NCBI GenBank assembly: GCA_026128965.1
Contig: JAHCIY010000002.1
Coordinates: forward strand, 1,936,468 to 2,000,467
Source: Labilithrix sp.
Lineage (GTDB): Bacteria > Myxococcota_A > Polyangia > Polyangiales > Polyangiaceae
Direction of reading: 5' to 3'
Length of the DNA: 64,000 nucleotides
A program made the translations under genes and the position numbers. The notes under the pieces are model-generated. The model saw nothing but the letters and a program-made list of their open reading frames with translations. It did no database searches and was not told the origin of the DNA. Below, piece after piece: positions 20,173 to 54,186 of the stretch. How positions within the stretch are numbered: position 1 is the stretch's first letter; each line of letters opens with the position of its first letter.

Positions 20173-20308
20173 GACGGAGACATGTAGGTGCACCTGCCGT
20201 GCCGCCGCTTTGGAGGGTGGGTGCTCTAGTAATTTCAAATATTTAAGGATGTAGGATGGTGTGATCTAAGCTCACCACCGGATCGCCCGTTGCGCTAAGA
20301 GCAGCGCA

Positions 20309-22739: not shown

Positions 22740-23306
22740 TCATAGGTCCGTCTCCACGTTTCTCCCGCAGATCTTCCCGCTGAGGGCGTTGCCGGTCTGA
22801 CCGAGCTGGAGCGGGCACTCGACGTTGTAGGGGGAGGGCGGATCGTAGACCGAGCCTTCGATCTTCAGCGAGGGGCTCGCCATGATGAGCGCGGTCGGCG
22901 ACGTGGGCTGCACCGCCATGACGCCCTCCTGCGTGAACACGCCCGTGATCTTCGTCTCGTAGTTCTCGTCCGCGTCTTCGTCCTTCGATAGGTACGCGCA
23001 CTCCTCGAGCTGGTAGACGATGCGCACTTCGGTCGCGCCCTGGATCGCGTTCGACGTCGCGCTCCCGGTCACGCGCACGGCGCCGCCCTGCGGGCACTTC
23101 GCGGCGAGGTCGTATTCGCCGACGGGCTTGCCCTGGAAGGTGAGGTTGAACGCGAGCTTCACCGTCTCGCGCACCGCCCGCACCGCGATCTCGTCCTTGC
23201 ACTCGTCGTCGCACGGCGGCGCCTCCGGCGGCGGCGTGACCGCGCTCGCGCCGTCGCACGCCGGCCCGGCGGCGAGGGCGAGCATGAAGAGGAGCACACG
23301 TCGCAT
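22740..23306 (-). CDS. Lipoprotein, hypothetical (co-transcribed downstream of the TonB-dependent receptor)
   Basis: 188 aa, starting MRRVLLFMLALAAGPACDG, with six Cys. Its start overlaps the receptor stop (TGATG). In the track this gene is fused into the 3' end of the ORF 22740..25793. Confidence 0.6.
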   Translation of the reverse strand: MRRVLLFMLALAAGPACDGASAVTPPPEAPPCDDECKDEIAVRAVRETVKLAFNLTFQGKPVGEYDLAAKCPQGGAVRVTGSATSNAIQGATEVRIVYQLEECAYLSKDEDADENYETKITGVFTQEGVMAVQPTSPTALIMASPSLKIEGSVYDPPSPYNVECPLQLGQTGNALSGKICGRNVETDL

Positions 23307-25753: not shown

Positions 25754-25839
25754 GGCGGCAAAGTCTTACGCCCTTTTTCTCCGCGCACCGCACGTTCTTA
25801 CGAACCGTTAACGTCGCGGCACCGAGCCGCCGCGTATCG

Positions 25840-27329: not shown

Positions 27330-27998
27330 ATGAAGACGTTCGCGCTCGCGCTCTTGGTCCTCGTCGCCGGCTGCAAGTCCACGGCATCGGAGGCGAAACC
27401 GGAGGCGAAGACCTCGACGACCACGACGACCGCGACGGCGCGGCGCACGAACGTCGGGGCCGACCCCGGCGGCGTGGGCATGGGCACGCCGCTCGCGCCG
27501 AAGCCCGGGCACGAGCTCGCGGCGTTCGCGGCGGGGTGCTTCTGGGGCGTCGAAGACAACTTCCGGCAGGTCCCCGGCGTCACCGCGACCGCGGTCGGCT
27601 ACACCGGCGGCCACACCGAGCGACCGACGTACGAAGACGTCTGCGCGCACACGACCGGTCACGCCGAGACGGTGCTCGTCGAGTTCGATCCGGCGAAGGT
27701 CACGTACGACGACCTGCTCCGCGTCTTCTTCCTCAACCACGATCCGACGACGAAGAACCGGCAAGGGCCCGACGTCGGCACGCAGTACCGCAGCGCGATC
27801 TTCACCCTGAACGACGCGCAGGCCGCGGCCGCGCGCGCCGCCGCGAGCGCGGCGTCGGCGCGGCTCGGCAAGGAGGTGACGACCGAGATCGCGAAGCTCG
27901 GCGCCTTCTGGAAGGCGGAGGAGTACCACCAGCAATACGACGAGAAGACGGGCACGCACTCGTGCCCGATGCCGAAGGGCGTCGCGCGCGGAACTTAG
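27330..27998 (+). CDS. msrA: Peptide-methionine (S)-S-oxide reductase MsrA (lipoprotein form)
   Basis: 222 aa, starting [17 protein letters not shown] and carrying the GCFWGVE active-site motif. A gaggagagaga ribosome-binding site lies upstream. Confidence 0.9.
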
Positions 27999-28098
27999 AG
28001 CGCAACCGTCACGCGGCGCGGCCGACCCGCCGCCCATGTATGCGTTCGACCTTTCCCCAGGGGCCGCCGGCGCAGTCGTGCTATCGAGCACGACGCGG

Positions 28099-30021: not shown

Positions 30022-30088
30022 CGCTCACGTGCGCGAGAGGCGCGGGTAAGTACACGCGCCGGCGCAAAGGATAGTAGGCTCGTTTTGC

Positions 30089-31885
30089 TTGGATCCTCGG
30101 CTCTTTGCTCGATGCGCCTCGATCGCGAGCCTGGTCGCCCTGACGACGTCCGGGAGCGCCGCCGCGGGCGGCTTCAACTTGAACCGCTTCGAGCCCGCGG
30201 AGCGCGGATCGCGCTGGTTCGTGCTCGACTCGCTCGATCTGAAGGGCCACGGCCGCCCCGCCGCCGGCCTCACGCTCGACTACCAGTACCAGCCGATCGC
30301 GATCAAAGGACCCGACAGCGAGGTCCGCGCGGCGGTGGTCGGGCACGTCGTCACGACCCACGCCGGCGCCAACGTCGTGCTCTGGGACCGCGTCCGTGTC
30401 GGCGCGAGCCTGCCGGTCCTCCTCTACAACGAGGGCACGACGGCGGGCCTCCGCGGCGAGACCTTCTACCGCCCGCAGAACGAGCAGGGCATCGGCGACC
30501 TCCGCTTCGGCGCGGACGCCCGGCTCTTCGGGACCGCGGAGAGCCCGATCACCGTCGCCTTCGGCGGCAGGCTCTGGCTCCCGACCGGCTCGCCGACCTC
30601 GTACACGAGCGACGGCTTCGTGCGCGGCGGCCCCCGCCTCTCCGCCGCGGGGAAGGTCTCGTATTTCGTGTATGGTGCAACCATCGGCGCGATGTTCCGC
30701 AGCCCGCAGACGCGGATCTTCGCCGACACCGCGATCGATCACGACCTCACCTTCGGCGTGTCGGCCGGCGCGAGCCTCGCGGACGGGAAGGTGACGATCG
30801 GCCCCGAGCTCTACGGCTCCACCGTGCTCGGCGACGCCGCGTTCAAGACGCGCTCGACGCCGCTCGAGGTCCTCCTCGGTGGCCACGTGCGGCTGCCGTT
30901 CGGGCTCCGCGCGGGCGCGGGCGTCGGCACCGCCGTCACCGCCGGCTACGGCTCGCCGCAGGTCCGCGTCGTCGGGTCGATCGAGTGGGTGATGGACCCC
31001 GAGCTCGACACCGACGGCGACGGGATCCTCGACAAGGACGACGCCTGCCCGCGCGTGGTGGGGACGCCGTCGACGGATCCGGCGCGCAACGGGTGCGTGA
31101 ACGTCGACACCGACGGGGACGGCATCGTCGACGAGGAGGACGCGTGCGCCGACGTCTACGGCGTGCGCACGAAGGACAAGCGCACGAACGGCTGCGACGA
31201 TCGCGACAAGGACGGGATCATGGACCCGCTCGACGCGTGTCCGAACGAGGCCGGTCCCGCGAACGCCGATCCGTCCAAGAACGGCTGCGTCATCCACACC
31301 GACAAGGACGAGGACGGGATCTGGGACGAGGACGACGCGTGTCCGGACAAGGCCGGTCCGAAGACGGACGACCCGAAGACGAACGGCTGCCCGGACCCCG
31401 ATCGCGACAAGGACGGCATCCCGAACGAGGCGGACGCGTGCCCCGACAACGCGGGCCCCGCGCACGCGAACCCCGCGCGCAACGGCTGCCCGATCGCGTT
31501 CATCTCCGGCGGTGAGATCCGGATCAAGGAGCAGGTGAACTTCGTGGTCGGGAGCTACACGCTCTCGACCGGGAAGGAGACGCTCGAGGTGCTGGAGGCG
31601 GTGAGGGAGATCCTCTCCGCCCACCCCGAGATCACGCGTGTCCGGGTGGAGGGGCACACCGACAACCGCGGAAACCCGGCCTGGAACAAGAAGTTGAGCG
31701 ACGCGCGCGCGGCCGCGGTCGTCAACTGGCTTGTTCGTAAGGGGATAGCGAAGACACGTCTGACGAGCGTTGGCTGGGGACAGGAGCGTCCGCTCGAAGC
31801 CAATGATACGGATCAGGGTCGCGCTCTGAATCGGCGCGTCGAGTTCCACATCGAGTCGTCAGAAGCTGCGAAGCCTTCGCCGTAG
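30089..31885 (+). CDS. OmpA-family outer-membrane protein with thrombospondin type-3 (TSP3) calcium-binding repeats
   Basis: 598 aa with a putative TTG start. It has an N-terminal beta-barrel-like region, then eight or more D.D.DG..D..D.C repeats (DTDGDGILDKDDACP, DTDGDGIVDEEDACA, DKDGIMDPLDACP...), then an OmpA C-terminal domain (...RVEGHTDNRGNPAWNKKLSDARAAAVVNWL...). Confidence 0.85.
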   Translation: MDPRLFARCASIASLVALTTSGSAAAGGFNLNRFEPAERGSRWFVLDSLDLKGHGRPAAGLTLDYQYQPIAIKGPDSEVRAAVVGHVVTTHAGANVVLWDRVRVGASLPVLLYNEGTTAGLRGETFYRPQNEQGIGDLRFGADARLFGTAESPITVAFGGRLWLPTGSPTSYTSDGFVRGGPRLSAAGKVSYFVYGATIGAMFRSPQTRIFADTAIDHDLTFGVSAGASLADGKVTIGPELYGSTVLGDAAFKTRSTPLEVLLGGHVRLPFGLRAGAGVGTAVTAGYGSPQVRVVGSIEWVMDPELDTDGDGILDKDDACPRVVGTPSTDPARNGCVNVDTDGDGIVDEEDACADVYGVRTKDKRTNGCDDRDKDGIMDPLDACPNEAGPANADPSKNGCVIHTDKDEDGIWDEDDACPDKAGPKTDDPKTNGCPDPDRDKDGIPNEADACPDNAGPAHANPARNGCPIAFISGGEIRIKEQVNFVVGSYTLSTGKETLEVLEAVREILSAHPEITRVRVEGHTDNRGNPAWNKKLSDARAAAVVNWLVRKGIAKTRLTSVGWGQERPLEANDTDQGRALNRRVEFHIESSEAAKPSP

Positions 31886-31904
31886 CCGTAGTAGGGGTGA
31901 AACC

Positions 31905-34418
31905 ATGCGTCAGATCATCAGGAGCTTCGCGCTCGCGGGCGTCCTCGCCGCTGCGCTCACGATCGAGCACAGCGCCGAAGCGCAGACCTTCCCGAACCCG
32001 CCGACGAACGCGAACCCGTTCTGGATCCCGATCCGGCGTGGCGGCAACGTCATCGGGGACCTCCCGAACGCGAACGCGGACTACCGCGACATCGTCGGTG
32101 ACGCGACGTTCCCCGCCGCGTACGTCGCCTCGGACGCCACCTTCCTCTACTTCCGCGTCCGCATCAACGGCAGCCCCGGGACGTTGGGCTCGCTCGGCAA
32201 CAATCGCGGCTACGGCTGCATGATCGACGTCAACAACAACAACTTCTGGGACCGCTTGGTCACGCTTGACGGCAACGGCACGGATGCGGTCAAGCTCTGG
32301 TCGAACTCGACGACGACGCCTGCACCGGCGAACGCGTCGACCGACACCGCGGACGGTTCGTCGACCAACTTCGCAGCGAACACGCATGCGCGAGTGTCCG
32401 TCGCGGACTCCACCTTCTCGAGCAACGCGGACTCTTTCGTGGACGTCGCCGTTCCGTGGGCCAACCTCCGGACCGGTGGTGTGACGGCGGCGACCGCTCT
32501 TCGCTTCGTCTGCGGGGTGACGGTCAGCGCGACGTCGGCGAACAACCTCGGCGCCGACATCTTCGACGGCGATGCCTCGACGACGCTCTCGACGAGCTGG
32601 AGCGACGCGTACACGTGCAACGGCGGGGGGCGGAACCTCTGCACGACGTCGTACGACTCTGACGGTGACGGCGTGTCGAACACGCTCGAGGACGTGTTCG
32701 GGACGATGCCGAACAACGCCGACAGCGACGGCGACGGCATCCCCGACTTCTACGAGCTCACGCCCGCGGGCGGCGGTGACTTCGCGGCGGTGAACTCCGA
32801 CAGCCTCGGGCCGATCGACGCGCTCGACACCGACGCCGACAACGACTGCGTCCTCGACTCCGTCGAGGGCATGACGACCTACCGCAACGCCTCGCTCCCG
32901 AACGCGAACCCGAACGACGCGTGCACGGCCGATCCCGCGGAGGCGATCTGCAACCGCCAGACGGGCACCTGCGCCGGCTGCACCGGCAACATCGGCACCG
33001 GCCCGCTCGCGTGCCCCGACGCGGCGGAGCCGTACTGCAACCAGTCCGGGCCGATCGCCGGGCAGTGCTCGGTGTGCACGATCGCGCTGGCGAGCGCCTG
33101 CACCGGAGACACGCCGGTCTGCGACAGCGCGACCGGCACGTGCTCGACCTGCAACGGCGACCGCGGCTCGGCCGCGAGCGCGCCGTGCACCTCCGTCAGC
33201 GCCCCCGCCTGCCAGCCGGCCGGGACGACGCTCGCCGGCAGCTGCCGCCAGTGCAACGCGACCAACACGGCGCTCTGCAACGTCGTGAACCCGGCCTGCT
33301 CGACCGAGACCGGGACGTGCACGAAGTGCGACGCTCACTTCGGCGCCGCCGGCGCGATCGCGCCGTGCCCGACCGCGGCCGCGCCCGCCTGCAACGTCGG
33401 CAGCGCGTACGACGGGCGCTGCACGGTCTGCTCGCCGAACAACACGAGCCTCTGCACGACCGATCGCCCCGCGTGCGATCCCTCCACCCGCACCTGCGCG
33501 CGCTGCAACGGCGACCGCGGGAGCGGCGCCGCGATGCAGTGCCCGAACGAAGACGCCCCCAACTGCGTCCTCGCCGGCGTCGATCAGGGCGCGTGCAAGA
33601 AGTGCGAGTCGAGCGCGGACTGCGGGCCGGGGCACACCGGTCCGACCTGCGACACGACGACGGGCGCCTGCGTCGACGTCGACACCGACGGCGACGGGCT
33701 CCAGGACGAGATCGAGATCCTGCTCGGCACCGATCCGCTGCTGCCCGACACCGACGGAGACGGCATCGACGACAAGACCGAGGTCACGCCTCCCGGGGGC
33801 GGGGCGTTCGAGAAGGTGGACAGCGACAGCGACGGTACGATCGACGCGCTGGACCTCGACAGCGACGACGACGGCATCCCCGACGCGGAGGAGGCGCGCG
33901 TCGGCGACGCGGGCCCGATCCTCGACACCGACGGGGACGGCCTCGCAGATTTCCGCGATCCCGACGACGACAACGACGGCATCCCGACGAAGGACGAGGT
34001 CGCGGACTCGAAGCTGGCGGCGGTGAACAACGACGACGTCGACGGCGACGGCAAGAAGAACTGGCTCGACTCCGACGCCAACAACAACACCTTCAGCGAC
34101 GGCGACGACGGCCGCGACGACGAGGACGGCGACGGCATCCCGAACTACCTCGACATGAAGAAGGACGTGCCGGCCCCCGAAGGCGGAGCGTCGTCGACGA
34201 GCTCGAGCTCTTCGTCGAGCTCGGGCAACGTCATCATCCGCCCGCCCTCCTCGAGCGGCGATCCCGACGCGGGCGCGCCCGGCGCCAACGCGGAGGACGG
34301 CGTTCTCGAGGGGAGCGGCTGCAACGCGACCGGCGGCCCCGCGTCGTCGCTCGTCGTGTTCGGCCTCGGCGCGATCGCGATCGGCCTCGTCTCCCGCCGC
34401 CGCCGCCTCCGCCGTTGA
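31905..34418 (+). CDS. Large secreted Cys-rich repeat protein with TSP3-like Asp repeats and a C-terminal MYXO-CTERM sorting signal
   Basis: 837 aa. It has the signal peptide MRQIIRSFALAGVLAAALTIEHSAEAQ and about seven tandem C...TGTC..C modules (CNRQTGTCAGCTGN, CDSATGTCSTCNGDRGS, CSTETGTCTKCDAHFG, CDPSTRTCARCNGDRGS, CDTTTGACVD). These are followed by D.D.DG repeats, a poly-Ser stretch, and the terminus GSGCNATGGPASSLVVFGLGAIAIGLVSRRRRLRR. Confidence 0.8.
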   Translation: MRQIIRSFALAGVLAAALTIEHSAEAQTFPNPPTNANPFWIPIRRGGNVIGDLPNANADYRDIVGDATFPAAYVASDATFLYFRVRINGSPGTLGSLGNNRGYGCMIDVNNNNFWDRLVTLDGNGTDAVKLWSNSTTTPAPANASTDTADGSSTNFAANTHARVSVADSTFSSNADSFVDVAVPWANLRTGGVTAATALRFVCGVTVSATSANNLGADIFDGDASTTLSTSWSDAYTCNGGGRNLCTTSYDSDGDGVSNTLEDVFGTMPNNADSDGDGIPDFYELTPAGGGDFAAVNSDSLGPIDALDTDADNDCVLDSVEGMTTYRNASLPNANPNDACTADPAEAICNRQTGTCAGCTGNIGTGPLACPDAAEPYCNQSGPIAGQCSVCTIALASACTGDTPVCDSATGTCSTCNGDRGSAASAPCTSVSAPACQPAGTTLAGSCRQCNATNTALCNVVNPACSTETGTCTKCDAHFGAAGAIAPCPTAAAPACNVGSAYDGRCTVCSPNNTSLCTTDRPACDPSTRTCARCNGDRGSGAAMQCPNEDAPNCVLAGVDQGACKKCESSADCGPGHTGPTCDTTTGACVDVDTDGDGLQDEIEILLGTDPLLPDTDGDGIDDKTEVTPPGGGAFEKVDSDSDGTIDALDLDSDDDGIPDAEEARVGDAGPILDTDGDGLADFRDPDDDNDGIPTKDEVADSKLAAVNNDDVDGDGKKNWLDSDANNNTFSDGDDGRDDEDGDGIPNYLDMKKDVPAPEGGASSTSSSSSSSSGNVIIRPPSSSGDPDAGAPGANAEDGVLEGSGCNATGGPASSLVVFGLGAIAIGLVSRRRRLRR

Positions 34419-39327: not shown

Positions 39328-42300
39328 CTACGGCGGGGCCACCGCGGGGAGCGGCTTTCCTTTCAGCGCCTCGATCGCGCGTTCGCAGCGCGCGATCGCC
39401 TCCGGGAGCGCGTCCTCCACCGTGCAGCGGACGCTGCGCCGCCCGCCGAGATCGTCGGGCATGACCGCGACGACGCCGCCGAGGACCTCTTCGCCCGCCG
39501 CGTCCACCGCGATGAAGTGGGCGTGGAGGGACGTCGTCGGCACGAGGGCGCCGATCGGGAGCGCCGACAGCGTCCAGCGCCAGCGGAGGTTCGGTCCGCT
39601 CGCTTGTGTCTGCTCCGCGCTCACGAGGCCCCGCGCGCGGGCGATCGGATCCGTCGTCGGGATCGGCTTCACGATCAGGGTGAACGCGCCGCACGTGTAC
39701 GTCGTGCGCGTGGCGTCGAGCGCGCACTGCTCGTGCTCGAATTTCGCGCGGCGCGGCGCGTCGGGCGTGAGGTCGAAGTCGGCTTCGAGGTTCTCGCGCC
39801 GCGCGTTCGGCGTCTGGTGTCCGGCGGTGAGCTCGGCGACGGTCTTCCTCACGTAGGCGCGCAGCTCCGAGACCTTGAGCTCACCGTCCTCGCCGGCGTC
39901 GGCCTTCCGCTCGCGGAGCCCCTGCAGGAGCGCGTAGGTGAAGACGCTGTTCTTCCACTCCGGATCTTCGAGCGAGTACTCGGCGCCCGCGGACGAGGCG
40001 AGCACGTGCGCGCCGGTCCCGCGACGGAGATCGGCGAAGAAGTCACGCGGCTGCGCGGCGCGCGTCGTTCGCGACGCCGGCGTCGGGCTCGTCACCTTCA
40101 CGCGCCCGCTCTTCGTGATCTCGGCGGCCTCGGCCGCGTCGAGCTCGCCGGCGTGGCAGCTATCCATCACGAGGAGCTTCTTCCGCGCGGGGACGCCGTC
40201 GAGGAGCCCCTCGATCGCGGCGTACGACACCGCGGTCCTCTGCACGTCGGCGACGTCGGCGTCGTGCGGCGCGAAGAAGTAGCCGCCGCTCCGGTCGAGG
40301 ACGCCGTGCCCCGACGCGTAGAGGACGACGACGTCCTCCGCCTTCGTCTTCTCGATCTCGGAGCGGAGCGCGAGGATCGCGGCGCGCGTCGCCTTCGCGT
40401 TCGTGAGCTCCGTCGTGCGGACGCCGGCGAACGACGGGCCCGGCTTGAACGCGCTCGCGAAGTCGCGCGCGTCCTTCGCGGGATAACGCAGACCCGCGAG
40501 CTCGGGCCGCGCGTACTCCGTTACGCCGATCGCGTAGACGTGGAGCACCGGCTTCGGCGCGGCGCCCACGTACGTCGTCACCGCCGTCGCCTCGAGCGAG
40601 AGGACGCCGAGCTCGTTCTCGACCGAGACCTGGAGCTTGTTCGAGCCGGGCACGAGCTCGATCGCGACCTCCTCCTCCACGCGCGGCGCCGGCGTGAGCG
40701 CCTTTCCTCCCGCGCCGAAGAGCGGCACGCCGTTGTCGATCACGTGGAGCCGATGCAGCTTCTTCGTCCGGTCGGACGCGCTCACGCGGAGGCGCAGCGT
40801 CTTGTCCTTCGCGACGGGCGTGACGCCGGCGACGGTGACGGTCGGGACCTCGCCGCGGACGAGCGACGCGGCGCGGTCGGGCGCGACCCCGAGCTTTCGG
40901 AGCCGCTCTCGCCGCGCGGCGTCGTAAGCGTCGACCACGTCCTTCGGCGCGTAGCCGACGCGCGCGAGGGCGCCGGCAGGATTGTTGTAGAGCGCATCGA
41001 ACTGCTCGAAGGGGTAGACGCGGTCCCCCCAGCGAAACCCGAGCGCGCCGGCGGCGTCGCGCGGCGCGAGGTACGCGCCGGTGTCGGCGACGAGGACGAG
41101 CCCGCCGGAGGGGAGGGCGGCGAAGGTGGTGACGACGCCCGACGCCGTGTCGAGGAGCCGGCCCGAGCCGTCGGTGTCGAGCCACACCAGCGTGCGGCCG
41201 TCCCCGAAGAAGCCGAGCTTCGACGGCGCGTGCGCGTGCAGGTCGGCGTGCCCGCGCTCGCGCCACGTCTCGGTGTCGAAGAGCGTGACGTGGCCCGCCT
41301 CGTCGCCGACCGCGAGGAGCTTCTGGCGCGGCGAGGCCGCGACGGCGGCGAAGCCGGGGAAGCCGCTCAGCGTCGTGAGGACGCGCTTCGTCGCGAGGTC
41401 CCACGCCACGACGTGGGTCCCGTCGCTCGTGACGAGCACCCGATCCGACGCGAAGGCGATCGGGCGCAGGAACCTCCCGCTCGCGTCGAGCGCGGCGACG
41501 CGCGCGCCGTCCTTCGTCGCGAAGACCTCCACCGATCTTTCGTCGCGCTGAGAGGAGACCGCGACGCGAGAGCCGTCCGGGCTCACCGCCATCGCGAAGA
41601 CGTGGTCGCCCTGGAGCGGCACGCGCCATCGCTCGGCGCCGGTGGCGGCCTCGTGCGCGACGATCGCGGCGTGGCCGTCGAGCGTCACGATCGCGCTGCC
41701 GCGATCGGCGTGCTCGACGTGCTGCAGCAGTCCGAAGGGGCCGTTCGCCTTCGTCACGCGCCAGAGCTCCTTCCTCGCCGCCCCCTCCGCGGCGTCGATC
41801 TCGCGGTAGCGCGAGGTGACGAGCACGTCGCGGTCCGGCGCGAACGAGCCCGCGCTCGCGCTCGCGCCCATCGGCGGGCGGATCTTCCGCTCGCCGCCGC
41901 CGTCGCGCGCGTCCCAGACGAGGTCCTGTCCGCCGCGCGAAGTCGCGTCCACGCTCGCGACGAACATGCGCGGCGCGCGCGGATCGGTCGCGAGGGAGAC
42001 GATGTTGGTCGTGCGGGAGCGGAGGTCGCGGACGTTCTGCCATCCGCCGGTCTCCCAGAGCGCGAGCTCGCCGGACCGCCCCGAGGCGAGGAGCGCGCCG
42101 TCGGGCGAGAACGCGAGCGCCTGCGTCGCGCGCGGCTCGAGCCTCGTCGTCGCCCCCGCGTCGAGGTCGTGCACGAAGAGACCGTCGGTGGTGGCGGCGG
42201 CGACGATCCGCCGCGTGGGGTGAAGCGCGATCGCCTCGACGTGCCCCTCCGTTCCCCACGCGCCGCCGTACACGAGCGGTCGCCAGCGCGTCCGCGCGCC

Positions 42301-44955
42301 GGTCGCGACGTCGACGACGACGACGAGCCCGCGGTCGTCGGCGCACGCGGCGAGCTCCCCGCGCTGGGCGGCTGCGACGGCGACGATCGCGCGCGACGTG
42401 CAGCGGAGCTCGCGCGGCGCCGCGGCGCGGAGGTCGAAGACCTGGAGCATGCCGGTGTGGTCCTTGCCGTCCTTCTCGAAGGACAGGAGCGGGGACCGGC
42501 GCGCTCCCACGACGACGTCGCCCGCGACCGCGAGGAGATCCGAGATCACCTTCGCCGGCAGCGTGCTCGCGCGCTCGCCGACGTCCTCGAGCACGGAGAG
42601 CGACCGGCCGCCATGAACAACGACGTGGCGCGGATCGCTCCACGAGAGCGGCCTCCGGCCGTGACCTCCGAGCGGCCGCTCCGCGATCCGCTCGCCCGTC
42701 CGCGCCGAGAGGAAGAGGCTCTCGTCGCTCGCGGTCGCGATCGTCGCGCCGTCGGGCGAGAAGGCAGCGCGATCCTTCCCCGGGAGGCGCGCGGTGAGGA
42801 GACCGGTCGCGACGTCGAAGAGGAGGACCCCTTCGCGCTGCACCGTCGCGAGCGTCGCGCTCGTCGGATCGAACGCGAGCGACTCGAACCGCGAGTCCGG
42901 CCAGCCTTGCACGATCGCGCTCGGCGCCTCGGCCGGCGGCGCGCGTCCGTCGACGGCGCGTCCGAGCACGCCGCGGCGACGGCGCGTGTCCGCCCACGCG
43001 TCCCACGGCGCCGCCGCGCCGTCCTTCACGCCGTACACGATCATGCGCTCGGCGCGCGCGGAGCGGCTCTCGAAGCGGCCGTCCGCGCCGAGGACGAGCC
43101 AGTCGTGCGCGCCCACCGTCGCGAGCTCGGCGGCGAGCGCGCCGCGCGGATCCCAGAGCCGCACCCCGCCGTCGTCGTGTCCGGAGACGACGCGGCCGTC
43201 GGGGAGGAACGCGACCGCGTTCGCCCAGGAGGGGACCGGCGCGGTCTCGAGCAGGCGCGCGCCCGTCGCGACGTCGAAGACGCGAGCCTTGCCGTCACGC
43301 GCGCCGGCGGCGATGACCTTGCCGTCGCTCCGGAAGGCGAGCGACAGCACCGGCGCGCCGGCGTCGATCGTGCGGATCGGAGCGTCGCCGGTCGTGTCCC
43401 ACAGCCGGATCGTCCCGTCGCGGTGCCCGCTCGCGAGGAGCGCGCCGGCCGGCGCGAACGCGACCGCGGCCGTCGCGCCGGGACCGCGCGCGAGGATCCG
43501 CTCGCCGTCCCCGTCGAGCGCACGGAGCGCGAGGATCGGCTCGTCGCGCGTGGACTCGCCGCCGACCGCCGCCACGCGATCGTCGGCGCGGACGGCGAGC
43601 GCGGTCCCGAGCGCGATCGCCTTCAGCGGCAAGAGCCGCTCCTCCTCGTCCTTCGCCGGCGTCCGCAGCGCGATCGCGTCGCGGGTCGCGATCGCGAAGG
43701 TGGTCCCGTCGCGGAGGAAGGAGACCGCGCCCACCTCGTGCGTGAAGGACGGTCCGTCGAGCGCCGCGCCGGTGCTCACGCGATGGAGCAAGATCCCGCC
43801 GAGGCGGTTCGGGCGGAGCGCGAGCTCGCCGCTCGGCGAGAGGCTCATTCCACCCGCCCCGTCGGCGCGCGGGACGTCGACGACCTTCGTCCCGCCGTCG
43901 AGCGACCACACATGGACCGCTGCCCCGCTGGCGACGAGGCGCTTGCCGTCCGGCGTCACCGCGAGGGCCGAGACCGTCGCGCTGCGGGCGGGCGCGAAGA
44001 CGACGCCGGTCCTTCGGTCGACGGAGAAGAGGTCCTCGCCCTTGCTTGCGACGATGCGCTCGTCGTCGAGCCAGGCCTGGTCGAACTCGAACGCGCCGGC
44101 CGACGACGCGTGGCTCGTCGCGACCTCGATCACGCGGCTGTCGTGCTTGCCGATCGGCGGCTGGACGAGGAGCCAGCGTCCGTCGCGCGAGAGCGCCATC
44201 GCGTCGAGCGTCGAGCCCGCGGCCGCGTGCGGGCGGCGCGTCTCGTCGCCTTTGCGCCAGGTCTCGATCGACGTGGCGCTCTTGCCCGCGATCGTCGCGC
44301 CGTCGCCCGAGAGCGCCTTGCTCCAGAATCCGTTCACGACCGTGTCGTCGAAGGCCGGCGCGCCGCGCGCGTCGCGGACGCGGACCATCGCCATGCTGCC
44401 GAGGACGACGAGCCCTCCCGCGTCGTCGAACCGCGCCGCGACGACGTCGCCGAGGCCTTCCGGCAGCGGATCGCTCTCGCGCTCCACGCGGACGCGATCG
44501 CTCACGATCGCGATCGCGCCGTCGTCCGCGATCGCGACCGCGCGCACACCGGTCGCGGCGAGCTCGCGGTGCCCCTCGTTCGATCGCGGGCTCCACCTCG
44601 TCGCGCGACCTTCCTTCGTCCAGACGAAGGCCTCGCCCTCGCTCGTGACCAGGACGCCCGCGACCGAGCCCGGCACGAGCGACGTCGCGAGCTCGCGGAG
44701 CGGCTCGGCCTGCCAGAGCTTCACGACCCCGTGCTCGTCCCCGGTCGCGACCCAGCGTCGATCGCGCGAGACGTCGATCGTGGTGATGGTCGCGCCGTGC
44801 CCGCTCGCGCGGACGGTCCGGACCCCGTCGTTCGGGACCGGGACGTCGGGCTCGTCCTGCGGGACGGCCTCGCGCGGCGGCGGAGGACGCACCGGGTGGC
44901 GGTGCCCTGCACACGCGGTGAGGAGCGCCGTTAATAGAAGGAGGAGGGCCCTCAT
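39328..44955 (-). CDS. Giant lipoprotein (~1,875 aa) made of multiple WD40/beta-propeller arrays with a C-terminal caspase-like (peptidase C14, orthocaspase) domain
   Basis: The signal peptide and lipobox are MRALLLLLTALLTACAG. It has dozens of WD-like units (…GHRDGTIRLWD…, …GHDDGGVRLWD…). The C-terminal region reads …HVYAIGVTEYARPELAGLRYPAKDARDFASAF…VVVLYASGHGV… (catalytic His) …KKLLVMDSCHAGE… (catalytic Cys). Track ORF 39328..45642 includes a non-coding N-terminal extension. Confidence 0.85.
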   Translation of the reverse strand: MRALLLLLTALLTACAGHRHPVRPPPPREAVPQDEPDVPVPNDGVRTVRASGHGATITTIDVSRDRRWVATGDEHGVVKLWQAEPLRELATSLVPGSVAGVLVTSEGEAFVWTKEGRATRWSPRSNEGHRELAATGVRAVAIADDGAIAIVSDRVRVERESDPLPEGLGDVVAARFDDAGGLVVLGSMAMVRVRDARGAPAFDDTVVNGFWSKALSGDGATIAGKSATSIETWRKGDETRRPHAAAGSTLDAMALSRDGRWLLVQPPIGKHDSRVIEVATSHASSAGAFEFDQAWLDDERIVASKGEDLFSVDRRTGVVFAPARSATVSALAVTPDGKRLVASGAAVHVWSLDGGTKVVDVPRADGAGGMSLSPSGELALRPNRLGGILLHRVSTGAALDGPSFTHEVGAVSFLRDGTTFAIATRDAIALRTPAKDEEERLLPLKAIALGTALAVRADDRVAAVGGESTRDEPILALRALDGDGERILARGPGATAAVAFAPAGALLASGHRDGTIRLWDTTGDAPIRTIDAGAPVLSLAFRSDGKVIAAGARDGKARVFDVATGARLLETAPVPSWANAVAFLPDGRVVSGHDDGGVRLWDPRGALAAELATVGAHDWLVLGADGRFESRSARAERMIVYGVKDGAAAPWDAWADTRRRRGVLGRAVDGRAPPAEAPSAIVQGWPDSRFESLAFDPTSATLATVQREGVLLFDVATGLLTARLPGKDRAAFSPDGATIATASDESLFLSARTGERIAERPLGGHGRRPLSWSDPRHVVVHGGRSLSVLEDVGERASTLPAKVISDLLAVAGDVVVGARRSPLLSFEKDGKDHTGMLQVFDLRAAAPRELRCTSRAIVAVAAAQRGELAACADDRGLVVVVDVATGARTRWRPLVYGGAWGTEGHVEAIALHPTRRIVAAATTDGLFVHDLDAGATTRLEPRATQALAFSPDGALLASGRSGELALWETGGWQNVRDLRSRTTNIVSLATDPRAPRMFVASVDATSRGGQDLVWDARDGGGERKIRPPMGASASAGSFAPDRDVLVTSRYREIDAAEGAARKELWRVTKANGPFGLLQHVEHADRGSAIVTLDGHAAIVAHEAATGAERWRVPLQGDHVFAMAVSPDGSRVAVSSQRDERSVEVFATKDGARVAALDASGRFLRPIAFASDRVLVTSDGTHVVAWDLATKRVLTTLSGFPGFAAVAASPRQKLLAVGDEAGHVTLFDTETWRERGHADLHAHAPSKLGFFGDGRTLVWLDTDGSGRLLDTASGVVTTFAALPSGGLVLVADTGAYLAPRDAAGALGFRWGDRVYPFEQFDALYNNPAGALARVGYAPKDVVDAYDAARRERLRKLGVAPDRAASLVRGEVPTVTVAGVTPVAKDKTLRLRVSASDRTKKLHRLHVIDNGVPLFGAGGKALTPAPRVEEEVAIELVPGSNKLQVSVENELGVLSLEATAVTTYVGAAPKPVLHVYAIGVTEYARPELAGLRYPAKDARDFASAFKPGPSFAGVRTTELTNAKATRAAILALRSEIEKTKAEDVVVLYASGHGVLDRSGGYFFAPHDADVADVQRTAVSYAAIEGLLDGVPARKKLLVMDSCHAGELDAAEAAEITKSGRVKVTSPTPASRTTRAAQPRDFFADLRRGTGAHVLASSAGAEYSLEDPEWKNSVFTYALLQGLRERKADAGEDGELKVSELRAYVRKTVAELTAGHQTPNARRENLEADFDLTPDAPRRAKFEHEQCALDATRTTYTCGAFTLIVKPIPTTDPIARARGLVSAEQTQASGPNLRWRWTLSALPIGALVPTTSLHAHFIAVDAAGEEVLGGVVAVMPDDLGGRRSVRCTVEDALPEAIARCERAIEALKGKPLPAVAPP

Positions 44956-45097
44956 GGAACCGTGCATCCTACCGCCGGGCTGGACTCCTGCCGCCGGAGG
45001 CCTAAAAAAGGCGCGCAACGCCGAGACCTCTTGCGGCATCTCTACGTTGGCCGGCTCCTTGACCGGCGATAACCCCTCGAATAGACGTCGGATCTCA

Positions 45098-46189
45098 ATG
45101 CAACTTGCTCGTTGGCGGTTCGTCGTTGGCGTGGCCGCCCTCTCGTTCTTCGCTGTCGCCTGCAAGAAACCACCGCAGGCCGAAGGGGAGGCGCAGCTCA
45201 CGTCCGCCACGTCGGAGGGGACGCCGATCAAGGTACAGAGCGCGCCCGTCGTCGAGAAGCCGATGCCGGAGCACCTCGTGCTCACTGGCACGCTGAAGGC
45301 GAGCCAGGAGTCGCAGGTCGCCGCCGACGGAGCGGGGAAGGTGACCGCCACGTTCGTCGAGCGCGGCCAGCACGTGAAGCAGGGCGAGACCCTCGCGCTC
45401 CTCGACGCGCGCGGCGCGAACCTGCAGGTGAACACGCTGAACGCGCAGTCGGCGCTCGCGCAGGCGCAGCTCGAGCAGGCGCAGCGCGAGTGCGATCGCG
45501 TGAAGGCGCTCCGCGACTCGGGCGCGATCTCGCAGGCCGAGTACGATCGCACCACCTCACAGTGCCAGACCACGCAGTGGTCGGTCGCCGCCGCGCAGGC
45601 GCAGACGAAGAGCGCGCAGAAGATCGTCGGCGACTCGGTCATCCGCGCGCCGTTCGCGGGGATCGTCGGCGAGCGCTTCGTGAACGTCGGGCAGTACGTC
45701 GCGCCGCAGACGCCGATCGTCTCGCTCTACACGCCGGACCCGCTGCGGCTCGAGCTCACGGTGCCGGAGGCGAACGTGGGCGGGCTCAAGCAGGAGCAGG
45801 TCGTCACGTTCAGCGTGTCCGCGTTCGAGAAGGATCGGTTCCAGGGCACGGTCCGCTACATCGCGCCGAACGTCCGCCCGCAGACGCGCGACCTCATCAT
45901 CGAGGCGCTCTGCCCGAACGCGGACGGCAAGCTGAAGCCCGGCATGTTCGCGGTCGCGCAGCTCGAGACCGCGGAGAAGCCGCTCCCCACCGTGCCGCTC
46001 GCGGCGCTGCAGAAGGGGCCCGACGCGACGAAGGCGTACGTCGTCGTCGACAAGCACGTGCAGGAGCGCATCGTGCAGACCGGGTCCGAGAAGGACGGCG
46101 CGGTCGCGATCCTCGCCGGGATGAAGGTCGGCGAGCAGGTCATCCTGAGCCCCGGCGCGGACGTGCGCGACGGCGCGAAGGTCCAGTAG
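45098..46189 (+). CDS. RND-efflux periplasmic adaptor (membrane fusion protein), lipoprotein
   Basis: 363 aa. It starts MQLARWRFVVGVAALSFFAVAC. It has a coiled-coil hairpin (…QSALAQAQLEQAQRECDRVKALRDSGAISQAEYDR…) and beta-barrel and lipoyl motifs (VIRAPFAGIVG). Confidence 0.85.
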   Translation: MQLARWRFVVGVAALSFFAVACKKPPQAEGEAQLTSATSEGTPIKVQSAPVVEKPMPEHLVLTGTLKASQESQVAADGAGKVTATFVERGQHVKQGETLALLDARGANLQVNTLNAQSALAQAQLEQAQRECDRVKALRDSGAISQAEYDRTTSQCQTTQWSVAAAQAQTKSAQKIVGDSVIRAPFAGIVGERFVNVGQYVAPQTPIVSLYTPDPLRLELTVPEANVGGLKQEQVVTFSVSAFEKDRFQGTVRYIAPNVRPQTRDLIIEALCPNADGKLKPGMFAVAQLETAEKPLPTVPLAALQKGPDATKAYVVVDKHVQERIVQTGSEKDGAVAILAGMKVGEQVILSPGADVRDGAKVQ

Positions 46190-50338: not shown

Positions 50339-50499
50339 TTCGATTTTCCTCCGCTGCTGAGCAATGCAGTCGGTGGGCCACGCGCCCGCGCCCGTTTCTG
50401 CGGAGAAAGGCCTTGTCGAGCTCGCGCTCTAGCTGACCCGTCGTGCCCCTCGGTGTGGCGCTCTTGTCTCGCGCGATAGTAGGATCGCGGCCTCGAACC

Positions 50500-53400
50500 A
50501 TGTCGGACGAGGAACCGACCTCCGCAGATTCCATTCGGCTCGTCGTGCCGAAGCGGAAGTCGCCGGAATCGATCCGCAACATCGCCGCGCTCGCGGACGA
50601 TGAGACGCGGGTCGAGGCCCTGCTCGCGCGCCTCGAGCAGACGCCGGACCCGAGCGCGCGGAGCCGGATCCTCGTCGAGATCGCGATCACGATGCGCGAC
50701 GGGCTCGACGATGCCGAGCAGGCGCTCGAGGCGCTCCTCGAGGCCTGGCGGTCGGACCCGCGCAACGACGACATCCTCGACAACCTCGAGCCGCTCGTCC
50801 GCGCGCAGGACAAGTGGACCGAGCTGATGGAGCTGACGCGCGCGCTCGCCGGCGCGGAGCGCGTGCCCGATCGATCGCTCGCGTACCACGAGGCGATGGT
50901 GCGCTGGCTCACGCGCGACCGGCCCGACCCGTCGCTCGCGCGGCAGTGGGTCGAGCGCGTGCGCGTGATCGACTCGACCCACGCGCTCGTGCACTTCATG
51001 CAGGCCGCGCTCTCGCGCGAGCACGGCGATCTCAAGCGCGAGATCGACGAGCTGGACCTCGCGGTGCTCTCGACGCGCCGGAAGGACGAGCGCCTCCCGA
51101 TCCACCTGCTCCTCGCGTCGCGCTACATGGACGAGCGCACCTACAACCGCGTCGAGGCGAAGAAGCAATACGAGCAAGCGCACAAGCTGTTCCCGCAGAT
51201 GATGGATCCGCTGCGCGGGCTCGAGCAGATCGCGGTCGCGGAGAAGGACAACCACGCCCTCGCCGACGTGCTCCGGCGGCAGGCCGACGCGGAGGTGGAG
51301 GAGCCGGAGCGCGTCCAGATCCTCATGCGCCTCGCGAAGCTCCAGGAGCTCGAGTTCCGGCGGCCCGAGCTCGCGGCGAAGACGCTCGAGCGCATCGCCT
51401 CTCGCTCCGCCAAGCTCGACTTCCTCTTCGACGACCTCGAGCGCTGCTACCGCGCCGCGCGGATGTGGCCCGAGCTCCTCGCGGTGCTGGAGCGCGCCGC
51501 GATCAGCGACGACGAGCCCGAGAAGCGCGCCGCGCGCCTGAAGCGCCTCGGCGAGGTGCTCGAGGCGAAGATGGGCGACATCCGCGCCGCCCTCGACACG
51601 TACAAGCGGCTCGCCGGGCTGATGCCCGAGGACGAGACGGTCGTGACCGAGCTCGCGCGCCTCGCGGAGAAGGTCTCCGACGTCGAGCTCGCGGTGAACT
51701 GCCGCGAGCGCCTCGCCGAGCTGACGACCGACCCCATCGCGCGCGCGCGCCACAACCTCGTCGCGGGGCAGCTCCTCACGCCGATCGACGGCAAACGCGC
51801 GCGGCGGTTCTTCGAGCAAGCCGTCGCGTCCGACCCGACCAACGCGCCGGCGTGGAACGCGCTCTTGTGGGACGCGCGCGCGGAGAACGACCTCCCGCGC
51901 GCGGCGCACTACCTCGAGCAGCGCGCGAACGCGACCGAGACTCCGCGCGCGCGCGCGACGTGCTTCGTCGAGCTCGCCGAGATCCAGCAGAAGATGGGCA
52001 ACCGGCCCGGCATGCTCTCCGCCTACGAGAGCGCGTTCCTCTCCGATCCCAGCAACGAGGCGGCGGCGTCCGCGCTCCTCGAGCCCTGGATGGCGATCGA
52101 GCGCTACGAGGACGTCGAGAAGATCATCCACGTGATCATCGCGGCGGCGGAGCGCGATCGCGACGGCTACCGCGCCTACACCGCGCGCCGCGCGTTGACG
52201 AAGATCGGCTTCGAGCTCCACAAACCCGACGTCGCGCTCGAGGCCGCCTTCGCCGCGTTCAACTCCCGGCGCGAGGAGGACGAGGCGCGGCGTGACCTCG
52301 TCCTCGCCGCGAGCGCGATGCGCGCCGACCCCGCCGTGCTGAAGGTGCGTGACGCGCTCCTCGTCATCGCGGAGCGCCCGGACGGGCTCGCTCCCGACGT
52401 GCGCGTCGCGCTCGGCGAGACGCTCGCGTCGATGGGGGAGAGCGATCGCGCCGCGTCGCTCTACGACGAGGTCCTCACCGAGTCGCCCGACAACGAGCGC
52501 GCGCTCGCGGGCCTCTCCCAGCACCACGCCGCGTCGGGGAACAAGGTCGCCTCGCTCGCGCTGAAGCGCCAGCGCGCGATGGCGATGGCCGATCCGAAGG
52601 AGCGCCTCGCGACGCTGCTCGAGACCGCGGAGGCGTTCGCGAAGATCGACCAGGAGGCGCTCGCGGCCGAGGTCTACGAGGCGGCGCGCGTGCTCGCCCC
52701 GAACGACCTGCCGATCCTCCACAAGCTCCTCGCGCTCTACCAGAAGGCCTCGAAGTGGGTCTCGCTCTTCGACGTGCTGCGATCGATCGCGGAGGTCGAC
52801 GCCGATCCGCTCCGCCGCGCGAAGACGTACTTCACGATGGGGCAGATCGCGAGCGTCGAGCTCCTCGATCGCGGGACCGCGCTCGAGATGTTCGACCGCG
52901 CGCTCGACGTCGACGCGACGCAGCTCGAGGCGTTCGAGAACATCGTCAAGATCCTCACCCGCACGAAGGACTGGGCCGGCCTCGAGCAGATGTACCGGCG
53001 CATGCTCGCGCGGGCGGAGGCGCGGCGCGATCAACGGCTCTCCTTCGTCCTGAACAAGCAGCTCGCGATCATCCTCCGCGATCGCGTCGGCGACGCGCAG
53101 GGAGCGATCGAGGCGATCCGCGCCGCGACGAAGCTCGTGCCGGAGGACGACGAGTCGCAGGCTATCCTGCGCGAGCTGCTCTCGCACACGGGCCAGGCGC
53201 AAGGCGCGGTCGCGATCACGCTCGAGCGCGTGCTGAAGGAGCCGCTCGACCCGCGGCCGTACCCCGCGCTCTTCGATCTGCTCCTCACGCAGGGCCAGCG
53301 CGACCGCGCGCTCTGCGTCGCGAGCGCGATGACCTTCCTCGACGTGAACCATCCGAGCGCGACGGCGTGGCGCCAGACCTACGCCCCGCCGCCGATCGAG

Positions 53401-54186
53401 GCGATCGTCCGCGAGCTCGGCCCCGAGGGCTACCGCTACCTCCTCCACCCCGAGCTCGATCCCACCCTCACCGAGATCCTCCAGATCTGCGCGCCGGCCG
53501 TGATCGACATCGCGCTCTCCCGCCTCTCGCTCCGCGAGCGCATGAGCCACCCCGGCTCGGCGCTGAAGGGGCAGGACTGGCTCGGGAAGGTCGTCGCCCG
53601 CGCGGCGCAGATCCTCGGCGTGCCGGCGCCGCCGAAGCTCTTCGCGCGCAAGACGCCCGGCCCCGCGATCGCCGCCGCGCCGACGAAGCCGCCGAGCCTC
53701 CTCGTCTACACCCAGTCGCTCGCGGGCGTGAGCCGCGAGGCGCTCGCGTTCATGATCGGCAAGCGGGTGATGGAGCTGACGCCCCCGCTCCTCGCGCGCG
53801 CGCTGTGCCCCTCCATCACCGAGCTCAAGGCGCTCGCGTCGTCGGCGGCGCGCATCGCGACGGAGCAGATCGAGCCCGGCGACCAGCCGCTCCGCGAACG
53901 CCTCAAGCGCGACGACGTCGCGCGCATCGGCGCAGCCGTGCGGCGCTCGATGATGGGCGGCGGCCGGATCGACGTCGTGCGCTGGTCCCAGCTCGCGGAC
54001 GTCTCGGTCTCGTGCGCGGGCCTGCTCCTCGCCGGCGATCTCGAGGCCGCGCGCGCCGCGATCGCGATCGAGCCGCAGGCCCCGGGCGACCTCAGCCCGC
54101 GCGACAAGATGCGCGAGCTCGTCGCCTGGTACCTCGGCGACGCGTGCGCTCGGCTTCGCCAAGGTCTGGGGCTCGCGATCCTATGA
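50500..54186 (+). CDS. Large tetratricopeptide-repeat (TPR) protein
   Basis: About 1,228 aa, starting MSDEEPTSADSIRLVVPKRK. It has many 34-residue helical repeats with a W-LG-Y / A…F…A…P pattern (…AEQALEALLEAWRSDPRNDD…, …GMLSAYESAFLSDPSNEAA…, …AAEVYEAARVLAPNDLPIL…). Two in-frame stop codons lie just upstream of the ATG. Confidence 0.75.
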   Translation: MSDEEPTSADSIRLVVPKRKSPESIRNIAALADDETRVEALLARLEQTPDPSARSRILVEIAITMRDGLDDAEQALEALLEAWRSDPRNDDILDNLEPLVRAQDKWTELMELTRALAGAERVPDRSLAYHEAMVRWLTRDRPDPSLARQWVERVRVIDSTHALVHFMQAALSREHGDLKREIDELDLAVLSTRRKDERLPIHLLLASRYMDERTYNRVEAKKQYEQAHKLFPQMMDPLRGLEQIAVAEKDNHALADVLRRQADAEVEEPERVQILMRLAKLQELEFRRPELAAKTLERIASRSAKLDFLFDDLERCYRAARMWPELLAVLERAAISDDEPEKRAARLKRLGEVLEAKMGDIRAALDTYKRLAGLMPEDETVVTELARLAEKVSDVELAVNCRERLAELTTDPIARARHNLVAGQLLTPIDGKRARRFFEQAVASDPTNAPAWNALLWDARAENDLPRAAHYLEQRANATETPRARATCFVELAEIQQKMGNRPGMLSAYESAFLSDPSNEAAASALLEPWMAIERYEDVEKIIHVIIAAAERDRDGYRAYTARRALTKIGFELHKPDVALEAAFAAFNSRREEDEARRDLVLAASAMRADPAVLKVRDALLVIAERPDGLAPDVRVALGETLASMGESDRAASLYDEVLTESPDNERALAGLSQHHAASGNKVASLALKRQRAMAMADPKERLATLLETAEAFAKIDQEALAAEVYEAARVLAPNDLPILHKLLALYQKASKWVSLFDVLRSIAEVDADPLRRAKTYFTMGQIASVELLDRGTALEMFDRALDVDATQLEAFENIVKILTRTKDWAGLEQMYRRMLARAEARRDQRLSFVLNKQLAIILRDRVGDAQGAIEAIRAATKLVPEDDESQAILRELLSHTGQAQGAVAITLERVLKEPLDPRPYPALFDLLLTQGQRDRALCVASAMTFLDVNHPSATAWRQTYAPPPIEAIVRELGPEGYRYLLHPELDPTLTEILQICAPAVIDIALSRLSLRERMSHPGSALKGQDWLGKVVARAAQILGVPAPPKLFARKTPGPAIAAAPTKPPSLLVYTQSLAGVSREALAFMIGKRVMELTPPLLARALCPSITELKALASSAARIATEQIEPGDQPLRERLKRDDVARIGAAVRRSMMGGGRIDVVRWSQLADVSVSCAGLLLAGDLEAARAAIAIEPQAPGDLSPRDKMRELVAWYLGDACARLRQGLGLAIL

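Follow-up and report, generated by a model that had tools for sequence, protein, structure and literature searches.

The 64,000-nucleotide stretch of the Labilithrix sp. contig JAHCIY010000002.1 analysed here (the window; coordinates count from its first letter) carries on its minus strand, at 39328..44955, a gene whose 1,875-residue product is no singular invention but an enlarged, tail-bearing form of a widespread family of exported WD40-caspase proteins. From the N to the C terminus the protein comprises four propellers, a helical linker, an immunoglobulin-like (Ig-like) sandwich, a caspase-like C14 domain and a 148-residue tail of disulfide type, and the core formed by the last propeller, the linker, the Ig-like sandwich and the caspase domain defines a family that carries signal peptides and is spread over many phyla. 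We put at roughly 0.6 the probability that the protein is, taken as a whole, an envelope-anchored, Arg/Lys-specific protease with substrate-selecting propellers; the sequence and context of the gene point to no new mechanism. Its features are as follows.

39328..44955, minus strand: complete gene, 1,875 codons plus a TAG stop (open reading frame (ORF) list, third-position G+C, NCBI call; codons checked)
44911..44955, minus strand: signal peptide with lipobox (aa 1-15, MRALLLLLTALLTAC; Cys15 the predicted lipidated residue), read from the sequence; similar N-termini in relatives
44824..44910, minus strand: Pro-rich segment (aa 16-44, AGHRHPVRPPPPREAVPQDEPDVPVPNDG...), read from the sequence; putative tether
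42946..44823, minus strand: first propeller pair (aa ~45-670), 12 blades detected plus two blade-sized gaps, ~14 blades; blade hidden Markov model (HMM), Pfam WD40
41086..42930, minus strand: second propeller pair (aa 676-1290), 14 four-stranded blades in two 7-bladed propellers; conserved Cys852/Cys871 pair
40852..41085, minus strand: hairpin and helical linker that follow the propellers (aa 1291-1368), bearing the family signature VYPFEQFDALYNNP; AlphaFold2 (AF2), family consensus, motif HMM
40558..40851, minus strand: Ig-like beta-sandwich (aa 1369-1466) of seven to eight strands; AF2 with a predicted local distance difference test score (pLDDT) >90, conserved family-wide
39766..40557, minus strand: caspase-like (Peptidase_C14) domain (aa 1467-1730); PF00656, invariant columns, AF2 with Foldseek, profile matches
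40306-40308, minus strand: catalytic His1550, codon checked
40156-40158, minus strand: catalytic Cys1600, codon checked
40036..40143, minus strand: disordered loop joining the p20-like part to the p10-like part (aa 1605-1640), candidate region for autoprocessing
39331..39765, minus strand: C-terminal tail domain (aa 1731-1875), predicted alpha/beta; Cys1744/Cys1755 and Cys1844/Cys1857 pairs, alignment A4
44956..45103, no strand assigned: 148-bp intergenic spacer shared with a divergent membrane-fusion protein (MFP)/RND operon

The Caspase-Like Protease Module

An initial annotation, made from the sequence alone, had placed a caspase His (YASGHG) and Cys (DSCHAGE) dyad behind the propeller repeats. 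Both motifs are present, as YASGH(1550)G and DSC(1600)HAGE, within a PF00656 match to aa 1475-1727 that covers positions 6-232 of the 233-position model (E=6.3e-15; 55.9 bits against a cut-off of 21.4). In an alignment of 62 homologues His1550, Cys1600 and the aspartate at -2 from the cysteine (Asp1598) are invariant, as are Asp1495, Asp1541, Gly1551 and Gly1603, and in the trimmed caspase alignment (A2) Glu1604, Glu1659 and Glu1663 prove invariant as well. Many family members have F instead of H right after the catalytic cysteine (DTCFSGE).

We ran two AF2 predictions with family alignments, one of aa 1290-1875 and one of aa 676-1875. The former resolves an alpha/beta caspase-like domain at aa ~1470-1730 with pLDDT >90, for which Foldseek returns the MALT1 paracaspase as the best match in the PDB (E=5e-10; template modelling score 0.72 to the isolated MALT1 caspase domain), followed by caspases-3, -7, -8 and -9 at ~1e-6 to 1e-7 and probability 1.00; structure prediction thus bears out the caspase fold that the initial annotation had proposed. 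A profile of the untrimmed alignment (A1) was dominated by WD40 matches when searched against the PDB, and the A2 profile, used instead, finds the Arabidopsis metacaspase-4, AtMC4 (6w8s, E=3.8e-5), Geobacter GSU0716 (3bij, E=6e-4) and yeast Yca1 (4f6o, E=0.14) as the closest solved structures. These share K/N-D, SGHG and D-x-C-H-S-G motifs with the window protein, but the similarity is very remote and all three are single-domain, cytosolic proteins. On its motifs, the domain is predicted to be a catalytically intact member of clan CD, family C14, of the metacaspase/paracaspase type.

Recognition of a basic P1 residue is attributed to S1 residues Asp95 (alpha1) and Asp211 (L4) in TbMCA2 and to Asp365 (alpha1), Asp462 (L4) and Glu500 (L5) in MALT1 (McLuskey and Mottram, PMC4357240). 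In the profile alignments Asp1495 pairs with the metacaspase "ND" aspartate and Asp1598 with the "D-S-C" aspartate, and Glu1659 and Glu1663 are invariant in the L5-equivalent segment. Because these invariant acidic residues align with metacaspase and MALT1 S1 positions, the enzyme most likely has an acidic S1 pocket and cleaves after Arg or Lys, in keeping with the metacaspase-type pocket suggested earlier. MALT1 (8v4x, 3uo8, 3v4o), the best structural match to the protease module, has acidic residues at what are predicted to be the equivalent S1 positions and, like the window protein, an Ig domain adjoining the caspase domain (identity 10-16%), although its Ig3 follows the caspase domain whereas the Ig-like domain described here precedes it. 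MALT1 is a cytosolic protein of eukaryotes whose activation runs through the CBM complex.

The loop between the catalytic cysteine and the invariant FADLRRG segment is predicted to be disordered (pLDDT <50 at aa 1617-1633) and is rich in basic residues (Lys1615, Arg1618, Lys1620, Arg1629, Arg1632 and Arg1637 within aa 1605-1640). Across the family it carries a conserved motif, V-[K/S]-x-R-x-F (alignment A1), a plausible candidate for the autoprocessing site of an Arg-specific enzyme; the window protein reads VKVTS here, with Lys1620 kept and Thr1622 in place of the conserved Arg.

A Complete Reading Frame with an Export Signal

Long spurious ORFs are common in the window because of its ~71% G+C, and codon-position composition served to single out the real gene. 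Third-position G+C in the minus-strand frame that ends at 39328 stays at 0.92-1.00 in each 300-nucleotide interval from ~44742 down to 39642, and upstream of ~45040 the codon-position pattern becomes that of the antisense strand of a plus-strand gene, the divergent MFP gene. The ATG at 44953-44955 is preceded by AGGA ~11 nucleotides upstream and by a further in-frame ATG 12 nucleotides upstream, and the frame closes with TAG at 39328-39330 (minus strand; codons checked). Exactly the same 1,875-residue product is found in the NCBI annotation of GCA_019637155.1 (contig JAHBWE010000023.1), and the identical protein occurs on a second contig, in agreement with the single coding gene of ~1,875 residues first described.

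The N terminus, MRALLLLLTALLTAC, opens with a basic residue, continues with ten hydrophobic core residues and closes with the lipobox L-T-A-C at Cys15 (M-R, ALLLLLTAL, L-T-A-C15). Read against the lipobox pattern, it fits [LVI][ASTVI][GAS]C behind a short leader that is basic and then hydrophobic. Lipobox-like N-termini recur in the three closest relatives (P0096, P0097 and P0098, described below) and in the Nitrospirota member P0029, so that the lipoprotein signal proposed in the initial annotation finds company. More widely, a crude N-terminal hydrophobic-run test detects signal peptides in at least 38 of 45 full-length family members, and several of those failing the test visibly have one as well; flavobacterial members show ...A/S-Q at the predicted cleavage site, which agrees with the Bacteroidetes Q-rule (PMC5837995).

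The cysteine content points the same way. Only eight cysteines occur in 1,875 residues, namely Cys15 in the lipobox, the catalytic Cys1600 and the pairs 852/871, 1744/1755 and 1844/1857, all three pairs being conserved in P0096, P0097 and P0098, a pattern that fits the disulfides expected of an exported protein in an oxidising compartment. Since the lipobox is conserved in relatives, signal peptides are the family's rule (at least 38 of 45) and the non-lipobox, non-catalytic cysteines all fall into conserved pairs, the evidence supports an exported rather than cytosolic protein, as first suggested. Cys15 is probably lipidated, probably placing the protein in the cell envelope; the Ala at +2 is not known to act as an inner-membrane retention signal under either E. 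coli or Myxococcus rules.

Four Propellers, a Linker and an Ig-Like Domain

WD40 and beta-propeller Pfam families match the protein with E-values down to 1e-39. The AF2 model of aa 676-1875 (mean pLDDT 81.9, predicted template modelling score 0.75) folds its first 615 residues into exactly 14 four-stranded blades, and a blade HMM made from these 14 recovers all of them, together with 12 more blades and two blade-sized gaps in aa 62-610, such that blades cover essentially all of aa 62-1278. The first half therefore very probably holds two further propellers; Pfam WD40 also matches aa 49-115 and 470-664. The propeller count that the initial annotation left for later work is therefore four 7-bladed propellers, the second pair taken from the AF2 model and the first from sequence, or 28 blades over ~1,250 residues (~aa 45-1290), and not the more than 1,500 residues of propeller repeats first assumed.

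The remainder is made up by a linker and an Ig-like domain (aa 1291-1466) absent from the earlier description. The AF2 model of aa 1290-1875 shows a beta-hairpin and four-helix linker (aa ~1305-1367) and an Ig-like sandwich (aa ~1372-1462), both with pLDDT >90. The linker consensus of the family is YPFEQFDLxxNRPDxVLxRLG, where the window protein has VYPFEQFDALYNNPAGALARVG, and a linker-motif HMM built without the window protein scores 52 bits on it. No Pfam model matches the linker-Ig module, and the module used alone as a homology query returned one short, uninformative fragment.

A recent internal duplication of the propeller halves was considered and rejected, matches between them being short and weak (E no better than ~2e-6). 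Aa 607-644 (window 43024-43137, minus strand), at the end of the first pair, bear a faint likeness to the family's post-propeller motif (GAHDWLVLGADGRF...); this is the sole other place where the post-propeller-motif HMM scores, marginally and not significantly (conditional E=0.044), and it hints that the N-terminal half may be a truncated family module anciently fused in front.

A Widespread Family and Its Tail-Bearing Subgroup

Searching with aa 1290-1875 yielded 94 homologues at 29-45% identity (30-44% over the ~430-residue core), all with PF00656 and most with WD40 families, each covering ~40-75% of the query and none extending into the tail; one, P0020, is collinear with the window protein over aa 1134-1727 by BLASTP. 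A scan of one genome per species gave 31 loci, mostly from Bacteroidota (Leeuwenhoekiella, including the cultured L. blandensis MED217, Aequorivita, Crocinitomix, Lewinellaceae, Chitinophagaceae and Cyclobacteriaceae), the others from Cloacimonadota, Nitrospiraceae, Gallionellaceae, Gammaproteobacteria, Terriglobia and Verrucomicrobia. The length of full ORFs lies between 977 and 1,730 residues, for example 1,015 in Reichenbachiella (P0038), 996 in a Nitrospirota member (P0029) and 1,713 in L. blandensis MED217 (L006). A complete member typically has ~1,000 residues and ends in ...RRENLExDFxVW/Y, and most have two propellers, a plan from which the window protein departs by its four propellers and 148-residue extension. 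Giants of ~1,700 residues also occur in Flavobacteriia, with N-terminal extensions that are non-homologous to that of the window protein and have arisen independently. Members are already labelled "caspase family protein" or "WD40 repeat protein" in databases, and the gene first described as the most unusual in the window does not stand alone but is one member of a populous exported family. The literature covered yielded neither experiments on this exported family with its caspase domain last nor a description devoted to it.

Three relatives share the tail. P0096 (1,922 residues) aligns collinearly with the window protein from aa 15 to 1867 (39% identity) and also has the extra N-terminal propeller pair, whereas this first pair is absent from the ~1,100-residue P0097 (1,145 residues) and P0098 (1,091 residues), which match aa ~845-1875 at 45-46% identity. 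From the alignment of the mature N-termini of P0097 and P0098 at aa ~677-681, the window protein reads as a ~1,100-residue tail-bearing unit preceded by an extra propeller pair.

The tail comprises 148 residues (1728-1875) following RRENLEADFDL, fewer than the ~170 given in the initial annotation, which was right that it has no recognisable motif: no Pfam model matches at E<=10, with the tail alone or with all four tail sequences, a PDB profile search gave only noise (E>=0.33), and a word-indexed homologue search found nothing. An exhaustive HMMER search against 1.84 billion cluster representatives returned, apart from its own entry, P0096, P0097 and P0098 as convincing matches; three more matches were weak, repetitive and unconvincing. 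Modelled with low confidence in the AF2 prediction of aa 1290-1875, the tail reaches pLDDT ~55-86 once P0096-P0098 are included in the alignment, with a predicted order of three strands, a helix, four strands and a C-terminal helix.

Other loci show further variation of the family plan. A Gallionellaceae member (L016, 1399-5655) bears a C-terminal FGE-sulfatase domain, and a spartobacterial one (L022, 5256-9521) an N-terminal LprI domain and a cadherin-like sandwich, with no WD40 detectable. In Reichenbachiella sp. (L003, 4747-13436) the 1,015-residue WD40-caspase gene is followed by a second large WD40 gene (1,025 residues), and a ~403-residue TPR gene precedes each of them, so that the TPR plus WD40 unit is repeated, a pairing not seen in other loci.

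Relation to Known Systems

Among the domains that accompany prokaryotic caspase homologues, WD40 is the most frequent (10.9% of 671 sequences), and ~15% of these homologues contain transmembrane or signal segments (Asplund-Samuelsson et al. 2012, PMC3501461). Prokaryotic metacaspase-like and orthocaspase WD40 proteins (PMC3501461; for cyanobacterial orthocaspases, PMC6426788) have in common with the window protein a C14 p20-type domain, a His-Cys dyad and a predicted preference for basic P1. The architectures described in PMC3501461, however, have the metacaspase first and then NACHT and WD40, and the WD40 forms are not described there as exported, whereas the window protein has the reversed order, no NTPase, an export signal and the additional linker-Ig module that no Pfam model covers. 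The closest likeness is within the exported WD40-linker-Ig-caspase family itself, which shares with the window protein the signal peptide or lipobox, propellers, YPFEQFD linker, Ig-like sandwich, C14 domain and invariant residues.

The Apaf-1/caspase-9 apoptosome likewise combines a tandem WD40 propeller pair with a caspase, and the Apaf-1 propellers are among the best PDB sequence matches of the family profile. In the apoptosome, however, sensor and protease are separate proteins brought together in the cytosol by STAND ATPase-driven assembly, whereas for the window protein the 25 best of its 39 Pfam matches, all 5 from NCBIfam and the two from PADLOC include no NTPase (NACHT, NB-ARC or AAA). 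Prolyl oligopeptidase and tricorn are precedents for propellers that limit access to a protease; they belong to different peptidase families and offer an analogy only.

Proposed Function and Alternatives

On the reading that we prefer, the protein would be exported through Sec, the exported state being the part of the scheme that the evidence supports, then lipidated at Cys15 and held in the cell envelope through the Pro-rich tether. The four-propeller platform would recruit or select envelope or extracellular protein partners or substrates, and the tethered clan-CD protease would cut the bound proteins after Arg or Lys. Before it becomes active, the protease may have to be cut in the basic, disordered loop that separates the two halves of its caspase domain.

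Several points weigh against this reading. A thiol protease outside the cytoplasm has to remain reduced, which gingipains show to be possible, and the conserved linker Arg is missing (Thr1622), so that the autoprocessing site, if any, differs from that of the family. The first propeller pair is read from sequence, and the tail has a predicted fold that is only moderately confident and without a match, so that any part it may play in regulating or inhibiting the protease is conjectural. The gene has no conserved partner or operon that would point to a substrate or pathway. Candidate biological roles are envelope protein processing or quality control, degradation of nutrient or prey proteins, and an envelope sensor-executioner.

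In the last of these, the propellers would recognise a periplasmic ligand that is foreign or linked to danger (for example a phage, toxin or prey protein), upon which the caspase is activated and destroys envelope proteins, with abortive defence or developmental lysis as the outcome, in effect Apaf-1/caspase logic without an NTPase and outside the cytoplasm. WD40 and caspase combinations are recurrent in prokaryotic conflict systems (PMC7159879), and within the family it is the propellers that vary, several lineages having enlarged this region independently. Of the NCBIfam models, NF047832 ("caspase, EACC1-associated type") fits the caspase domain best, and the EACC1-caspase conflict system (Kaur et al. 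2020, PMC7159879) is membrane-associated, as the window protein is predicted to be; the score of 100.2 bits is nevertheless below the cut-off of 140, and that system needs a 5' single-transmembrane EACC1 gene, where the window has a divergent RND membrane-fusion gene and no small transmembrane gene in the 148-bp spacer. PADLOC gives two weak, generic matches, among them a "caspase" model at E=6e-7, and membership in a defence system was rejected on this account. A Nitrospirota locus has a second secreted-type C14 protein and an extracytoplasmic function (ECF) sigma/anti-sigma pair nearby, but no neighbour is conserved across 34 loci, and the protein has no NTPase among the domain matches listed, no EACC1 partner and no defence island around it, the neighbours being RND efflux, IMPDH, RecQ and peptidase genes. 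We regard a sensor-executioner as improbable. In that Nitrospirota metagenome-assembled genome (L004, 1-2742), the second C14 protein lies upstream of the family member and carries DUF4384, next to the ECF sigma and zf-HC2 anti-sigma genes.

A bulk nutritional or predatory protease, displayed on the surface or on vesicles and degrading external proteins as food in the manner of Bacteroidota gingipains, appears equally improbable. The family is found mainly in surface-associated lineages that degrade proteins and polymers (Flavobacteriia, Saprospiria, Chitinophagia and Myxococcota), and the window holds further peptidases, including an S15 X-Pro dipeptidyl peptidase (20270-22267, plus strand). 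Gingipains are extracytoplasmic Arg/Lys-specific proteases of clan CD (PMC4357240), and thus have both clan and basic-P1 preference in common with the prediction made here, but they form a different peptidase family (C25) with an N-terminal prodomain and a type IX secretion system (T9SS) sorting domain. Bacteroidota members of the family stop at ...ENLExDFxVW and leave no room for a T9SS C-terminal sorting domain, which favours a periplasmic rather than secreted location there. Gingipains also carry an adjacent Ig-like domain. Four propellers would moreover be costly for a non-selective digestive enzyme, and there is usually one copy per locus, with no context resembling a polysaccharide utilisation locus.

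More speculatively still, the family might be an extracytoplasmic surveillance device, in which propellers of variable number sense foreign or damaged envelope proteins and switch on the tethered Arg/Lys-specific caspase-like protease; the Cys-paired tail of the small Myxococcota subgroup would then be an added control or targeting element. If true, this would be an apoptosome-like sensor-protease logic operating outside the cytoplasm without an NTPase.

That the protein is a non-catalytic scaffold or adhesin, its caspase-like domain a binding module (pseudo-protease) in a structural envelope component, is very unlikely: pseudo-orthocaspases are known in bacteria (PMC6426788) and WD40 proteins are typically scaffolds, but the catalytic His and Cys, the Gly after the His and the pocket acids are invariant across the 62 homologues and the window protein has canonical SGHG and DSCHAGE motifs. 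Least credible of all is a mis-called start or chimeric assembly, with an untranslated lipobox and a true protein that is shorter or cytoplasmic, because, for all that alternative starts are plentiful in high-GC genomes and the maximal ORF extends to 45642, codon-position G+C upstream of 44955 is that of the antisense of the MFP gene, the identical product occurs on two contigs, the collinear P0096, itself from two independent metagenome assemblies, also carries a lipobox, and the paired cysteines are consistent with export.

WD40-fused caspase homologues tend to be discussed as cytoplasmic cell-death or conflict modules. The family reveals a large and phylogenetically broad set of exported WD40-caspase proteins with a shared linker-Ig-caspase core that has no domain model, and its cultured members (Leeuwenhoekiella blandensis MED217, Crocinitomix algicola, Reichenbachiella) offer a way into the role of caspase-type proteases in the bacterial envelope. 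The window gene matters mainly as a clearly bounded, enlarged member of the family whose tail domain is an orphan.

Genomic Context

The initial annotation had noted that the gene diverges from an RND efflux operon. An MFP and RND pair indeed lies divergently ~150 bp upstream, but the adjacency is incidental, because neighbouring genes are not conserved: all-against-all ORF clustering found no partner gene conserved across 34 loci beyond within-genus synteny, and P0096 (locus L036) sits among unrelated small genes and a TPR protein non-homologous to that of the window. A functional link to the RND operon was rejected on these grounds. A consensus scan of 44956..45103 found no sigma-70-like promoter. 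At the 3' end an IMPDH/CBS gene converges on the caspase gene, the two stops being 5 bp apart.

The paralogue check suggested earlier, carried out here within the window, found no second caspase domain and one other WD40 protein. The latter (6839-9586, plus strand) is a WD40/beta-propeller protein in a 915-residue frame, with propeller matches at aa ~220-915 and no caspase domain, weakly similar to the repeats of the caspase gene; its N-terminal ~220 residues have no assigned family.

Overall, the window is ordinary chromosomal DNA with genes for housekeeping and for the envelope, neither a defence nor a mobile island, and tRNA and Rfam scans of its whole length gave no match. Besides the peptidase gene mentioned above, it encodes a TonB_C and Plug receptor-like protein (23306-25765, minus strand), a RecQ helicase (27880-30021, plus strand), an OmpA-family protein with thrombospondin type-3 (TSP3) repeats (30050-31885, plus strand) and an 862-residue protein with a bacterial TSP3 repeat (31830-34418, plus strand). 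A 1,249-residue protein at 50437-54186 (plus strand) has weak TPR matches at ~aa 657-709 and is non-homologous to the 1,362-residue TPR protein that follows the collinear relative in L036.

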